From IMG/VR virus record IMGVR_UViG_3300032073_000008, positions 46,318 through 110,317 of that record: a DNA stretch of 64,000 nt. One strand, given 5' to 3'. The translations under genes and the position numbers were made by a program. The notes below the pieces were generated by a model. The model saw only the letters and a list, made by a program, of their open reading frames with translations. It was not told where the DNA came from and made no database searches. The DNA comes from a virus. Within the stretch, counting starts at the first letter, position 1, and each line of letters begins with the position of its first letter. Below are positions 18,157-33,100 of the stretch, piece by piece.

Positions 18157-19305
18157 TTATTTATTTTTGATCATATTATATTTTTCTTCTAAGCTCTTAG
18201 CTGAACAATTGGCTGGATGTTCTATTTGACAAACAACCTCACCATCAACCTCAATATCCCACAAATAATTTAATGTTGTCTCAAACACTTCAGGAACATA
18301 ATCTGGAGGATAATCAACCTCAAGCTCAGGTAATGAATAATCTTCATGCAACAACATTTGCTTTTCCATATTGCATATCTCTTGGTTAAAAGGAAATAAC
18401 CATTTGTTATTATTCTCACCAAATTCACCAACTTGACAAACAACTCCAGGATTGCTAGTATCATAGATATATGTTGGCGGTTTTTCCACATTGCAAAACA
18501 TTTCTAATCTTCCATGATAAGATTCATTTTTAAGAATAAAATATTGTGCTGTATCTTCTCCTACAAGAAGAAATTCTTTAAATTTATGTACTGCTGCTTT
18601 TCTAGAATACCATGTTACTCTGCAGTGAGCTTCAAATGTTTCGCAATATTTTTGTTGTTTAGCATAATATATTAACATCTCTAATCTATCGCCTTTAGAT
18701 ATTTTCCTATCACTTGATAGTCCAGCGATGACTTTATTCCATAATTCTTTCTTTCTTACTTTACCATCAGCAGAATCTAATAGGTTAAGTGTTTCAGGTT
18801 CACCATTTACAGTAAAAATTAAATTTGGTTTAACCTTGATATATTCTTCTGGTATATCACCAAGTTTCAATTCATTTTGATCAACATTATTTTCTTTTAT
18901 CCATGTGTCAACAAGATTTCTATCCCAGACAAGAGCCATTTGATTTTTCATGCAAATAACATCTGGTGGAGAGTCTTGCTCAGCTATTCTTTTATACATC
19001 CAAACGCCATGTTGTGTCAAATAATCATCACCGTCAATCATAACAAAATAATCTTGATCACTCTCTAAAAATAAATCAAGCACACTGTTCTTTCCACGCG
19101 ATGCAGTTCCGTTAGAATCTGTGACATAATGTTCTATATCTCTAGAGGAACACCACTCTTTCGCTTCAGCTTCATACTCTTTATCTAAAGTATTGATTAC
19201 AACAATAAGATCTTCCTTTGGTATTGCACTATAATCTGGGTGAATGTGTCTTTCAAGGCAATTAATTGATCTAGTAGTTAATACATAAAATTTCATTTTA
19301 TTCAT
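18157..19305 (-). CDS. Putative GT-A fold glycosyltransferase
   Basis: SNGTASRGKNSVL...DYFVMIDGDDYL (DxD motif) and a later VGEDT motif. Confidence 0.65.
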   Translation of the reverse strand: MNKMKFYVLTTRSINCLERHIHPDYSAIPKEDLIVVINTLDKEYEAEAKEWCSSRDIEHYVTDSNGTASRGKNSVLDLFLESDQDYFVMIDGDDYLTQHGVWMYKRIAEQDSPPDVICMKNQMALVWDRNLVDTWIKENNVDQNELKLGDIPEEYIKVKPNLIFTVNGEPETLNLLDSADGKVRKKELWNKVIAGLSSDRKISKGDRLEMLIYYAKQQKYCETFEAHCRVTWYSRKAAVHKFKEFLLVGEDTAQYFILKNESYHGRLEMFCNVEKPPTYIYDTSNPGVVCQVGEFGENNNKWLFPFNQEICNMEKQMLLHEDYSLPELEVDYPPDYVPEVFETTLNYLWDIEVDGEVVCQIEHPANCSAKSLEEKYNMIKNK

Positions 19306-19925
19306 CTATCAATCCTTTTTATCCAACTGCTGTCTTGAAATACTTTTGTTGGTCTTTTGATAATTTCATCTATAGCCTGCACGCATCCAGGAAATGCTGG
19401 CTCATCTGTTTTGGGGAATTGAGGAAATCTGTAATCATGCCCACCTATAAAACCCCCAGTTTTAACTTTTGGTATGTAATTAATCAAATCAGATTTAACT
19501 GCTTCATAGCTATGGTTAGCATCAATGTAAATGAAATCAAAATATTCGTCTTGAAATACTTCGTGGATATTTTGGCTGAAATCTCTATGATGCACAATAT
19601 TATGATAATGTCTGGTATTTAAAAGAAACTGATTTTCAACAAACTCCCAGTCATAAAAATTCTCATCATTAAATTGTTCTTCTCCAGTGAATGGCTCTAT
19701 ACAATGTATTTCTTTAAATAAATTTGCCATACCAAACATAGCTGTTGATTCGCCCATGTAACTACCAATCTCGAGCATTTTTGCTTCCTTCACACCTCTT
19801 TTTTGCAGATCTTGTATTAATCTAAAAAGACCAGTCACAAAAACATTACCTTTGAACTCACTAAAAAATTGTGGTGGTGTGAATCTAAGTGAGTATAAAA
19901 CTTTGTCATCTCTTGTGTATGTCAT
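19302..19925 (-). CDS. Class I SAM-dependent methyltransferase (Methyltransf_24-like)
   Basis: MLEIGSYMGES, FDFIYIDANHSYEAVKSD, GGFIGGHDY; ATG 19925 overlaps the upstream TGA (ATGA). Confidence 0.88.
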   Translation of the reverse strand: MTYTRDDKVLYSLRFTPPQFFSEFKGNVFVTGLFRLIQDLQKRGVKEAKMLEIGSYMGESTAMFGMANLFKEIHCIEPFTGEEQFNDENFYDWEFVENQFLLNTRHYHNIVHHRDFSQNIHEVFQDEYFDFIYIDANHSYEAVKSDLINYIPKVKTGGFIGGHDYRFPQFPKTDEPAFPGCVQAIDEIIKRPTKVFQDSSWIKRIDR

Positions 19926-30118: not shown

Positions 30119-33100
30119 CTATTTGTTTCCTAATTCTTCAATCATTTTTCTGAGTTCTTGGTTTTCTTTTCTCAATTCTTTGATTGACTCAATGAATAAA
30201 GAAGAAAGTTGATCATACGATACTGTTTTATATTCGCCTTCAATTTTATCATCAAGGCTTGTTTCTCTGTTACTAACAGCTGATGGTAAAACATCCTCGA
30301 CTTCTTGTGCTAACACACCAGCACTTTCTTTACCAGTTGTTATATAGTTGAATGTGTATCCATTTAACTGATCAACTTTATCTAATGCTCCTTCAATTTT
30401 TGTTATATTTTCCTTGTATCTAGAGTCAGATAATGATGATGCGAATGCCACTATATCATCTTTTACATAAAGGTTGCAACTACCATCTGTTTCCTTTTTA
30501 ACTTTAGAACCAGTTGTAGAACCAACAACAGAAGATATTTCGGATTGTGTTGTTCTGAATGCATGATATGTTGATGTTGCTCCATTATATAGAGTATAAG
30601 CTGGTGAAACTGTAGCTCTTCGTTGATCAGTCGACAAGCCAATTACTAATTGGTTGCCAGAAATTGCAGCTATCACACCAGTTGATGTTCCAGATAAATT
30701 GTCAGAAGCAACTACTTCTAGATATTCATGTGCACCGTCACTTTCATCCCAGAATACAATTCTATCAGCATTAGGGTCTGCAGGTAAAGCGAGTACACCA
30801 GCTACACCTTTGAGACCTTTAAGACCTTTCTCTCCTTTGAGACCTTTCTGACCTTTTTCTCCTTTCTCTCCTTTCTCTCCTTTGAGACCTTTCTCTCCTT
30901 TCTCTCCTTTCTCTCCTTTAGCACCCTCGCCCACAAGAATAGCAGCTGCAGACCATGTTACTGTAGTGTCAGTCGCAGTTCCCTCTGCACTAAATGTGCC
31001 CTGACTGACATATAGATCTTGTCCAGCTACTGGAGCAGGAATTGTAACATTCCAACCAGATGGTGGTGTTAGAGTATCAGTAGCGAAGTTATATGAGCCA
31101 TCGTCTGCGGTTGGTGTTGCTAATCCTCCACTAGATGTATCATGACGCTTATAGACCTTAGCAACAATAACACTTACGCCCTGAACACCATCTACACCTT
31201 TGAGACCTTTCTGACCTTTTTCTCCTTTCTCTCCTTTCTCTCCTTTGAGACCTTTCTGACCTTTTTCTCCTTTCTCTCCTTTGAGACCTTTCTGACCTTT
31301 TTCGCCTTTTAAGTTAGTGGCTGCACCAACCCACTCACCTTTGTTATTGATAAGTGCAGTCTCATTGTTAGAGTCATTTCTGTGACTTAAAACTGCATGT
31401 CCCTTTTCAACAACAAGTTTATCATGAACCCTAACACCATTATCACTACTTAATTCCAACTTCAAATCAGTATCTTCACCCATTGCTTGAGTGCTTGTAG
31501 TGCCTTCATCTGTATCGAAGACTAAGTTTTCTTTAACATAAAACTTCATTTTCGCGTCATCAGTCTCGTCAGTATTTACTGCTATCCTTGCAGCATTACC
31601 GTTTTGTTCAGGTTTTTGTGATTTGTGGTTGAATGTTATGTTAGCATTACCACCGCCATCATTGTGTGTTAATGCTACGCCACCACTACCTCTACCAGCT
31701 TGAATCTGGTCTGTAGTTGATATGAGATCTGTGGTTGTGGCGGTTGCGCCAGTCGCACCTTTATCACCATTTTCTCCAGCTAAACCTTTCTGACCTTTTT
31801 CTCCTTTCTCCCCCTTCTCTCCTTTAAGACCTTTCTGACCTTTTTCTCCTTTCTCCCCCTTCTCTCCTTTAAGACCTTTCTGACCTTTTTCTCCTTTCTC
31901 TCCTTTCTCTCCTTTCTCTCCTTTGAGACCTTTCTCACCTTTTTCGCCTTTAAGACCTTTCTGACCTTTTTCTCCTTTAACACCTTTGAGTGCTGCATTG
32001 GTGATTGTGGCTTTCTTCAATAAGTTGCCAGAATCGGCATCTTGTATCATAATAAAATCATCGCCACTAACATCACTATGGACAGCCAAATTGCTAATAG
32101 ATGTATTTGCGTTTGTTAAGATGTCATTATAATCAGATCCATTTTTAGTAACTTGCCAATCATCATCTGTCTCATTCCATCGCAAAGCTACATTAGTTAA
32201 ATCACCACGCTCAACTTCAAAACCAGCATTCTCAGTTATATTAGTGCCAGTTACATTACTATTAAGCGTAATTATGTTATCAGCAATCGTTACAGTTTCA
32301 CTGCTTACTGTAGTGGTTGTTCCTTGTACTGTTAGATTGCCTTTTACGATGACATTACTATTTGCAGTAATAGATTTAGCTGTTATGTCATGAAAAGCAC
32401 TTGTACCGACAGCACTAATACCGCCACTTGCAGTAATATCTTTAACAAATAAATTATCAAATTCAAATGAAGCACTTCCTAAATCTTTATCTCTGTTTGC
32501 TGCTGGGATAATGTCTGTGTTTAATGACCCATTAAAAGATATGGCATCATCACTAGCATCGCCCAACGCAACAGCACCATTGAGATTAGTAGTACCAGTA
32601 ACTGTAAGACCCGCAAGCGTACTTGCGACTGATGTTGTCACACCACCTGGAATATTCACACGATCATGAAAAACTGTATTCGCATAAACATTTAATCTTG
32701 CAATACGACCATCGTTGTATAATGGAACTCTGGCATCACTAGAAAGTGATGTATCAAAAGAATCACCCAATGAAATTGAGCCGTTTGCGACCAAATCACC
32801 ATGTATACGAATAGGTGTATCTGTAGCACCTAATGTCAATTCATCAGGAAGATCAATTGTTACTGTACTGTTTGTTCTACTGACTGAGATAGCATTTGCT
32901 GTGCCTTTAATGGCATGGACAGCACCGTTTGCACTGGTTTTTAGTGACACCAAACCAGAAGATACATCAAAGTCACCCTGATCAAATCGAGCTATACCCA
33001 ATGCATCGCCAGTAGCAGTCGCAGCAGTAATTGTAATTGTATTAGCGGATCCAGATATTTCTGTGCTTATACCAGTCCCACCAGCAAAAGCCATAGATGA

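Follow-up and report, generated by a model that had tools for sequence, protein, structure and literature searches.

A single bacteriophage polypeptide with three catalytic modules is likely, as judged from its sequence and that of its relatives, to form a collagen lysine-modification cassette acting on the phage's own tail fibre. Its gene lies in a stretch of 64,000 nt, here called the window, which covers positions 46,318 to 110,317 of the 110-kb IMG/VR record IMGVR_UViG_3300032073_000008. In animals, PLOD enzymes hydroxylate lysine in X-Lys-Gly, the GT25-family enzymes COLGALT1/2 add galactose, and the glycosyltransferase (GT) domain of LH3 adds glucose. PLOD-like enzymes are also encoded by mimivirus. 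Hydroxylysine-linked Glc-Gal is generally seen as characteristic of animal collagen, and among viruses only mimivirus is regarded as an exception. A preliminary description of the window had proposed that the fusion represents such a pathway for the phage's own fibre, and this proposal is supported by homology, by the catalytic residues, and by linkage of the gene to lysine-rich collagens.

The three-domain fusion gene (P0001) occupies 19922..21796 on the minus strand. Its product has 624 aa when counted from a TTG, although translation probably starts at the ATG at 21793, which has GGAG just before it. The domains are arranged in the order GT25, PLOD-type GT, and lysyl hydroxylase (LH). The last two are only about 5 residues apart, so that the accessory domain (AC) of the canonical PLOD architecture, GT-AC-LH, is absent. 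The open frame and all motifs quoted in the preliminary description (PVDEYLP, GGGHK, FTDAYDV, YLNSGTFIG, DDQLFY, HGNG, FVMRY, HCDAS, and THGH) are present in the translation, and its three domain assignments are upheld by sequence, predicted fold, and catalytic residues alike. The structural comparison that it had proposed with LH3, COLGALT1, and mimivirus L230 matched each domain when an AF2 model of the 624-aa protein (pLDDT 87.4, pTM 0.81) was searched with Foldseek. The best PDB matches of the individual domains are human and mimivirus collagen-modifying enzymes (LH3, COLGALT1, R699, L230, and R655), and the catalytic motifs of all three domains are intact.

The GT25 domain (residues ~3-205; 21182..21790, minus strand; Pfam PF01755, 7e-24) resembles the catalytic GT2 domain of COLGALT1. 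The Pfam match extends over residues 3-174 with 85.2 bits, above the cut-off of 24. Of the two-domain COLGALT architecture, which comprises a non-catalytic GT1 and GT2, only the GT2-like part is found, at residues 3-205. Residues E94-D95-D96, invariant in A1 and A2, align to the EDD of COLGALT1, the Mn2+-binding motif of its GT2 domain (PMC12003778). COLGALT1 is matched at 3e-17 by sequence and at 5e-15 by Foldseek (rmsd 2.1-2.4 A), and mimivirus R655 at 4e-5. The Pfam description of GT25, the source annotations, and the database name 'GR25 family glycosyltransferase involved in LPS biosynthesis' would suit a different role, in which the GT25 and PLOD-type GT domains attach sugars to glycans of the host envelope (LPS or lipooligosaccharide), e.g., to block superinfection, and seroconverting phage glycosyltransferases are indeed known. 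Such a role is very unlikely. The domain is far nearer to COLGALT1 than to a bacterial GT25 beta-1,4-galactosyltransferase, which matches at 9e-3 only, and it is always fused to a dioxygenase of the lysyl-hydroxylase type, which has no function in LPS. Moreover, examination of the translation revealed no signal peptide, hydrophobic N-terminal leader, or membrane segment, and the linkage to collagen fibre genes described below is conserved.

The PLOD/LH3-type GT domain (residues ~215-440; 20477..21154, minus strand; Pfam PF25342, 3.5e-52) has a GT_PLOD match over residues 232-437 of 177.5 bits against a cut-off of 27. In phmmer searches of PDB sequences it matches mimivirus R699 at 1.3e-32 and LH3 at 1.3e-27, and its predicted fold superposes on 6wfv with a TM of 0.84 and an rmsd of 2.3 A. 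The Mn2+ site of LH3 (DxxD plus His), its Trp75, and the poly-Asp residues Asp190/Asp191 are all present: D287/D290, H419, W253, and D365-D366 align to LH3 D112/D115, H253, W75, and D190/D191, and are invariant.

The C-terminal 2OG/Fe(II) dioxygenase domain (residues ~445-624; 19925..20464, minus strand) reached no Pfam model at E<=0.01 and was assigned to the lysyl-hydroxylase type by phmmer and Foldseek. Its sequence matches in the PDB are the LH domain of human LH3 (residues 458-613, 2.3e-6) and mimivirus L230 (residues 445-614, 1.8e-4), and no others. Foldseek also places L230 first (1.8e-11, TM 0.74), with prolyl 4-hydroxylases next at 1e-6. The iron triad H550, D552, and H599 is invariant and aligns to LH3 H667, D669, and H719. 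PHROG assigns the fusion to phrog_61, '2OG-Fe(II) oxygenase, AMG' (3e-130), and thus lists it among auxiliary metabolic genes. General proposals for cyanophage 2OG-Fe(II) oxygenases include 2OG/N-stress signalling, DNA repair, and secondary metabolism (Sullivan et al. 2010, PMC3037559; Iyer et al. 2010, PMC2938197). That the fusion is an auxiliary metabolic gene consuming 2-oxoglutarate in N-stress signalling, or acts on DNA in repair or hypermodification, is nevertheless the least probable of the alternatives considered here. The dioxygenase is nearest to LH3 and L230, not to AlkB or TET/JBP, and is joined to two collagen-type GTs. The fusion also occurs in non-cyanobacterial phages, namely roseophage CRP-6 and high-GC phages, where it always stands beside collagen genes.

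At the position of LH3 R729, which binds the C5 carboxylate of 2OG, the fusion has K609, as Lys is the residue in its clade; a basic residue is kept. This substitution could indicate that at least one domain has lost its catalytic activity and that the protein acts on collagen fibres as a chaperone or as a factor in their assembly. Parallels can be found in the non-catalytic AC domain of LH3, the GT1 domain of COLGALT1, and CERCAM; non-catalytic GT-like domains exist among the enzymes of this system (PMC12003778). Such a loss of catalysis is highly improbable, since the metal- and donor-binding residues (EDD, D287/D290, D365-D366, H419, and H550/D552/H599) are all invariant across clusters down to 25% identity and since Arg is present at the 2OG position in the divergent clade A3. 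Prolyl 4-hydroxylases use Lys at this position.

The fusion family is widespread among marine phages. It numbers at least 527 loci in IMG/VR and 690 or more protein clusters, occurring as hundreds of variants in ocean viromes. Cultured relatives are S-CAM9, S-PRM1, S-8S53/55/56, and CRP-6. The virus represented by the window is itself a marine cyanobacterial virus.

The presumed substrate is the tail fibre P0002 (1703 aa; 30119..35230, minus strand), which matches Pfam Collagen and Peptidase_S74 as well as many PHROG tail-fibre families. It is the sole collagen-bearing ORF of the 110-kb record and sits in a baseplate/fibre module. The Collagen model PF01391 scores 102 bits against a cut-off of 27.2. 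The C-terminus, as in S74-type tail fibres, holds the Peptidase_S74 intramolecular chaperone for trimerisation and autocleavage (30275..30430, minus strand; PF13884, 6.7e-15). Three uninterrupted Gly-X-Y runs lie on the same strand: 27 triplets of the GEK/GQK/GLK type at residues 1084-1164 (31739..31981), 15 triplets at residues 1310-1354 (31169..31303), and 15 at residues 1437-1481 (30788..30922). The approximate composition given in the preliminary description proved exact, with 57 triplets, Lys at Y in 48 and never at X, and no Pro in any of them. Glu at X beside Lys at Y stabilises Pro-free triple helices by charge pairs, and an enzyme-free explanation of the lysine richness therefore exists.

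The association between the fusion and collagen genes, which the preliminary description had put forward as a check on its proposal, was confirmed across genomes. Among loci with 6 kb or more of sequence upstream, a collagen ORF on the same strand precedes the fusion in 40 of 47, and in 16 of the 18 clusters formed at 70% identity. Downstream, such an ORF was present in 2 of 53 loci and 2 of 22 clusters (Fisher 3.8e-7 for upstream versus downstream; the loci are mutually related, so that this and the p-value given below overstate their independence). The median gap between the two genes is 1.4 kb (80 IMG/VR loci plus S-CAM9 and CRP-6). The linkage extends over T4-like cyanophages (S-CAM9), roseophage CRP-6, phages with 63% GC, and a Sansalvadorimonas MAG. 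The linked collagens are lysine-rich in comparison with viral collagens generally: the fraction of Lys at Y never falls below 0.146 and its median is 0.37 (n=48), against a median of 0.005 in 117 arbitrarily sampled viral collagens, 79% of which fall below 0.125. This contrast is unchanged when the viral sample is restricted to a GC content below 0.45. GT_PLOD was found in 4 of 28 records whose collagen is K-rich and in 0 of 27 whose collagen is K-poor, which points the same way. Against the link, most K-rich viral collagens have no such enzyme in their vicinity (1 of 118 loci has one), and in a 97%-complete record with a K-rich collagen no fusion-type enzyme was found.

Some observations would fit a target other than the collagen repeats, either another protein of the virion or host or a direct glycosylation of Thr/Ser, with proximity to fibre genes reflecting mere membership in a late structural module. 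Besides Lys, Thr is common at Y in many linked collagens, and in the clade of L320 and its relatives, which are fragments of very large phages, no collagen lies within 10 kb of the fusion or elsewhere in the 10-25% of the genome that is available. In the window, 8.3 kb separate the end of the fibre gene from the start of the fusion, so that the two are not adjacent. Such a target is unlikely, given that in the fibre of the window Y is Thr in just 2 triplets but Lys in 48, that the dioxygenase is closest to lysyl hydroxylases, and that the linked collagens are specifically lysine-rich and lie upstream rather than downstream of the fusion.

The fibre lysines are the likely substrate, and other genes may contribute to fibre maturation. 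P4H-like PF13640 genes occur in fusion loci in 9 of 12 clusters whose collagen contains Pro versus 1 of 9 Pro-free clusters (Fisher 0.0075), and in the representatives checked they lie between the collagen gene and the fusion. The window, whose fibre has no Pro, contains no PF13640 gene. Directly downstream of the fusion, two genes form one operon with it through ATGA start/stop overlaps. The ATG of a Methyltransf_24 class I SAM methyltransferase (P0004; 19302..19925, minus strand; Pfam, 1.3e-17) overlaps the TGA of the fusion, and its own TGA is overlapped by the ATG of a GT-A fold glycosyltransferase with an invariant DGDD (P0003, 382 aa; 18157..19305, minus strand). Searches of P0003 against Pfam and PDB sequences gave no match; its AF2 model (pLDDT 79, pTM 0.83) retrieved TarP/TarS/RmlT with Foldseek at 2e-7 to 1e-5. 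The GT-A gene directly follows the fusion in 11 further loci. The methyltransferase gene was not found adjoining the fusion in other loci, and in the relative P0144 a Methyltransf_24 domain is fused at the N-terminus. The presence of both genes in the operon suggests that the glycan may exceed Glc-Gal.

From these findings we infer what is modified, in which order, with which sugars, and to what advantage. Late in infection, in the host cytoplasm, the C-terminal dioxygenase would use Fe(II), 2-oxoglutarate, and O2 to hydroxylate Lys in X-Lys-Gly of unfolded fibre chains, at 48 sites. The N-terminal GT25 domain would then place a hexose on the new hydroxyl; if it acts like COLGALT1, the sugar would be galactose and the donor UDP-Gal. 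To this the central PLOD-type GT domain would attach another hexose, glucose from UDP-Glc if it works as LH3 and R699 do. The overlapping SAM methyltransferase and GT-A glycosyltransferase would probably elaborate the glycan further, after which fibre trimerisation would start from the C-terminal S74 chaperone domain. Possible benefits include stabilising or hydrating the Pro-free triple helix, shielding it from proteases, or tuning adsorption and host binding. A wider scenario can be imagined, which as a whole is rather doubtful, in which marine phages carry a modular collagen-maturation cassette comprising a P4H-like prolyl hydroxylase for fibres that contain Pro, the fusion of LH, galactosyltransferase, and glucosyltransferase, and further GT-A and methyltransferase genes. 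A methylated glycan of more than two sugars on tail-fibre hydroxylysines would then decide fibre stability or host recognition, and the LH3/COLGALT system, instead of having arisen within animals, would be derived from bacterial or phage cassettes of this kind.

If the proposed modification takes place, the whole Hyl-Glc-Gal pathway would operate in a single chain in the bacterial cytoplasm, some of the cyanophage '2OG-Fe(II) oxygenase' genes, long without explanation, would gain a concrete role, and glycosylation would become a new variable in tail-fibre adsorption, stability, and host range. The fusion is compact, should lend itself to expression in bacteria, and could also serve as a tool for producing hydroxylated and glycosylated recombinant collagens. 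In the literature, no paper was found describing such a collagen-lysine modification fusion in phages. Within phrog_61, the cyanophage '2OG-Fe(II) oxygenase' AMGs of which the fusion is a member, the evidence for this protein points to virion fibre modification.

Bacterial and phage collagen-like proteins, such as Scl, BclA, and prophage fibres, carry Pro-poor repeats in surface fibres, as does the fibre of the window. BclA is glycosylated on Thr. The P4H-like genes beside Pro-containing linked collagens resemble the B. anthracis prolyl 4-hydroxylase class. Prokaryotic collagens are generally regarded as devoid of Lys hydroxylation and Hyl glycosylation (reviewed in PMC8968730). The human LH3/PLOD3 and GLT25D1/COLGALT1 complex (8zgc), which converts Lys to Hyl, Gal-Hyl, and Glc-Gal-Hyl, contains the same three catalytic modules as the fusion and shares its metal- and donor-binding residues (EDD, DxxD plus His, poly-Asp, and HxD...H). 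Its known substrate position, Lys at Y of Gly-X-Y, is also that of Lys in the phage fibre. The human system consists of two proteins in a complex, whereas the phage has one 624-aa chain that lacks the LH3 accessory domain and the COLGALT1 GT1, carries Lys instead of Arg729, would act in the bacterial cytoplasm in keeping with its lack of a signal peptide, and has a Pro-free tail fibre as presumed substrate. That the modules occur naturally fused lends independent support to the functional link between LH3 and COLGALT1 observed in their human complex. The mimivirus enzymes L230 (LH and glucosyltransferase), R699 (Gal-Hyl glucosyltransferase), and R655 (GT25-like) of Acanthamoeba polyphaga mimivirus are relatives of the fusion in sequence and fold, and they are likewise virus-encoded and modify the virus's own collagen-like proteins. 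Mimivirus, however, is a giant virus of a eukaryote in which these activities reside on separate proteins with another domain order, whereas the bacteriophage unites the three modules in one polypeptide.

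The open reading frame at 19922-21796(-) is real; it translates into 624 amino acids, and every motif quoted for it in the preliminary description is present. The true start of this fusion protein (P0001) is probably the ATG at 21793, which has a GGAG ahead of it. The three domains proposed earlier have all been borne out. Pfam places a GT25 domain at residues 3-174 and a PLOD glycosyltransferase (PLOD-GT) domain at residues 232-437, both with scores far over the cut-off, and the C-terminal 170 residues match the lysyl hydroxylase (LH) domain of human LH3 (2.3e-6) and mimivirus L230 (1.8e-4). 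An AlphaFold2 model built with 28 homologues is confident (pLDDT 87.4, pTM 0.81). In Foldseek comparisons with the PDB, every domain finds its best matches among collagen enzymes, including the three that the preliminary description had named for a structural check (LH3, COLGALT1 and L230). Full-length LH3 was retrieved at 3e-27. The PLOD-GT domain superposes on the LH3 GT domain (6wfv; TM 0.84, rmsd 2.3 A) and also matches mimivirus R699, the GT25 domain matches COLGALT1 (5e-15, rmsd 2.1-2.4 A), and mimivirus L230 (TM 0.74) and R655 are likewise among the best matches. The next dioxygenases after L230 are prolyl 4-hydroxylases (1e-6).

Sequence alignment places W253, D287, D290, D365-D366 and H419 of the PLOD-GT domain at LH3 positions W75, D112, D115, D190-D191 and H253, and H550, D552 and H599 at the LH3 iron triad H667, D669 and H719. 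In the alignment with COLGALT1, E94-D95-D96 falls on EDD, an unusual Mn2+ motif in the catalytic GT2 domain of that enzyme (PMC12003778). These residues are invariant in family alignments down to 25% identity. The single departure from the LH3 residues is K609 at the position of the 2OG-binding R729, which is Arg in one divergent clade of the family. Judged from sequence and model, each of the three domains looks active; a non-catalytic protein would be a poorer fit to this architecture, to the closest relatives and to the collagen linkage described below.

At 90% identity the fusion family splits into no fewer than 690 clusters, and its relatives are encoded at 527 or more IMG/VR loci, which came from an alignment query; a related-locus search with P0001 alone returned one close locus. 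In a full HMMER scan, 212 representatives had values below 1e-30. The contig scan for divergent relatives was run with sub-alignments of the divergent fusion alignment, as the whole was too variable, and the genome scan yielded a distant representative, P0165, at locus L400. Variants in the family consist of GT25 and PLOD-GT with LH missing, PLOD-GT and LH with GT25 missing, proteins with two GT25 domains, a form preceded by a fused Methyltransf_24 domain (P0144), and longer proteins of 900-1500 aa. Other layouts have been observed in bacterial genomes, namely Streptomyces kronopolitis (L403) and Chlamydiae MAGs (L405/L407). The Streptomyces locus has PLOD-GT and LH with GT25 as a separate segment after them, and a Parachlamydiaceae contig carries four tandem segments of PLOD-GT only. 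Those clusters that bear a database name are called 'GR25 family glycosyltransferase involved in LPS biosynthesis', and the PHROGs class of P0001 is '2OG-Fe(II) oxygenase', auxiliary metabolic. Action on host LPS, or a role in consuming 2OG or acting on DNA (PMC3037559, PMC2938197), fits less well than action on collagen, judged by domain architecture, closest relatives and linkage.

The candidate substrate is the 1703-aa tail fibre at 30119-35230(-) (P0002). Its Gly-X-Y triplets number exactly 57 and fall into three runs, with Lys at Y in 48, Lys at X never and Pro nowhere, in agreement with the approximate counts made before. A Peptidase_S74 chaperone domain forms the C-terminal end of the fibre, which is the sole collagen-bearing ORF of the entire 110-kb IMG/VR record, which is estimated to be 61% complete and of which the window is a part. 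Nearly all genes of the window lie on the minus strand and make up a T4-like baseplate and tail-fibre module, with baseplate hub and wedge PHROGs followed by ORFs of 2018, 1703 and 1299 aa. Among isolates, the Synechococcus myoviruses S-CAM9, S-8S53/55/56 and S-PRM1, at ~49% identity, come closest at the protein level, together with the roseophage CRP-6 at 40%; megablast of the region against phage records found no relatives at the DNA level.

Several other features of the module were recorded. The 2018-aa protein directly upstream of the fibre, at 35480-41536(-), combines DUF4815 with phrog_358, a family of unknown function (E 7e-240). A 359-aa AurF-like/ferritin-like diiron oxygenase (Pfam AurF, 1.8e-11) is encoded at 23509-24588(-), in the interval from the fibre genes to the fusion; a homologue of it was seen at no other fusion-bearing locus. 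The product of a short ORF just upstream of the fusion, at 21853-22017(-), is a hydrophobic ~55-aa peptide (MLNAIQLLLGFFLIFGAVGG...) that may be a small membrane protein. Across the window, the T4-type late-promoter motif TATAAATA is present at 16 sites (e.g., 25248-25255, 18133-18140, and 14307-14314) against 5.7 expected, with 15 of them on the gene strand. No exact copy stands directly upstream of the fusion, the nearest being those at 25248 and 18133.

The co-occurrence of the fusion with collagen fibres, put forward earlier as a check, was assessed on 101 loci with a near full-length fusion, representing 34 clusters at 70% identity. To count as linked, an ORF had to lie on the same strand and contain 10 or more collagen triplets, and upstream counts were taken from loci with at least 6 kb of upstream sequence. 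A collagen ORF lies upstream in 40/47 loci (16/18 clusters) and downstream in 2/53 loci (2/22 clusters) only (Fisher 3.8e-7 on clusters), p-values being optimistic here since all linkage and Lys counts include related sequences. The median gap is 1.4 kb (80 IMG/VR loci with S-CAM9 and CRP-6), and at some loci both genes are immediate neighbours. The linkage is present in S-CAM9 (1831-aa fibre, Lys at Y in 22/59 triplets) and CRP-6 (gp60, 26/99), on ~53-kb contigs whose fibres have ~200 triplets, beside collagen giants of 3000 aa, in a GC-63% phage bearing four collagen ORFs, and in a Sansalvadorimonas MAG. That the fusion acts on some other protein is a reading which this linkage, the architecture and the closest relatives fit less well.

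There are three exceptions. The first is a clade (L320, L321, L323-L325, L328, and L331; 38-39% identity) on fragments of 35-92 kb, judged only 10-25% complete and therefore derived from very large phages, with no collagen in the available sequence. In one record of this clade, an open frame of 7575 aa matches collagen weakly. The second is the L055/L056 cluster, whose record carries two Lys-rich collagen ORFs ~15 kb upstream, and the third is a Pseudomonadota MAG.

The link is lysine-specific. As anticipated, the fusion-linked collagen ORFs are Lys-bearing (n=48; Lys at Y median 0.37, minimum 0.146), whereas 117 viral collagen ORFs picked by a Gly-only pattern have a median of 0.005, 79% of them being below 0.125; limiting that sample to GC <0.45 left the result unchanged. 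The converse fails, as only 1/118 loci picked by a (Gly-X-Lys)6 pattern has the fusion; among whole records, a GT_PLOD gene is found in 4/28 with K-rich collagen versus 0/27 with K-poor collagen. Thus, the enzyme is nearly always accompanied by Lys-rich collagen, but Lys-rich collagens can do without the enzyme.

A second, independent signal comes from small PF13640 (prolyl-4-hydroxylase-type) dioxygenase genes. These are present at the locus in 9/12 clusters with Pro in the linked collagen (0.15 or more per triplet) and in 1/9 Pro-free clusters (Fisher 0.0075). In the representatives examined with Pfam they are positioned between the collagen gene and the fusion, as in L068 (8839-10004), L072 (8860-9429), L026 (9414-9986), L401 (5703-6245), and L322 (8966-9523). 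None is found in the window, whose fibre is Pro-free. Such a distribution is the pattern expected from a cassette matched to the residues of its collagen, and suggests collagen prolyl hydroxylation as the role of some of the numerous 2OG-Fe(II) oxygenases of cyanophages.

Many AT-rich viral contigs (L333-L399) carry a stand-alone dioxygenase of ~170 aa, 30-39% identical to the LH domain. At about a dozen of these ~67 loci, a same-strand Gly-rich protein of 290-330 aa is encoded 2-3 kb upstream (e.g., dioxygenase 4942-5466 and Gly-rich ORF 1227-2105 in L340; 9984-10490 and 7117-8070 in L390). These neighbours were rejected as collagens, showing GGxGG runs and no Lys, and were left out of the counts; they may represent a different substrate class.

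Downstream, stop and start codons overlap twice: the TGA of the fusion with the ATG of P0004, a Methyltransf_24 gene at 19302-19925(-), and the TGA of P0004 with the ATG of P0003, a 382-aa ORF at 18157-19305(-). P0003 has no Pfam, PHROG or PDB sequence match; its glycosyltransferase nature is visible from the predicted fold alone, which is of the GT-A type (TarP/TarS/RmlT matches, 2e-7 to 1e-5), with an invariant DGDD. An ORF of this type lies immediately 3' of the fusion at 11 other loci. Among the loci compared, P0004 adjoins the fusion in the window only. Methyltransferases nevertheless recur around it, with FkbM-type genes adjoining in L072 and L033 and the fused domain in P0144, which belongs to the Pfam family of P0004 but shows no significant pairwise similarity to it and so lends it weak support. 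The additional GT-A and methyltransferase genes suggest a bigger glycan.

The reading of the preliminary description remains the most economical. We consider it likely that the phage encodes a system which converts Lys to Hyl, and Hyl to glycosyl-Hyl, in its own collagen fibre before trimerisation. Collagen lysines of the fibre would be hydroxylated and then glycosylated ahead of trimer assembly, the sugars being, by analogy, Gal and then Glc. Neither a phage lysyl hydroxylase nor a phage collagen glycosyltransferase turned up in searches of the open-access literature, where collagen Lys modification is reported from animals and mimivirus only; prokaryotic collagens generally lack it, according to a review (PMC8968730). 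Compared with the human enzymes, the phage protein is without the accessory domain of LH3 and the GT1 domain of COLGALT1, and no signal peptide is found at its N-terminus. Hence, it differs from canonical PLOD and COLGALT proteins and represents a new single-chain arrangement of the catalytic modules of both.
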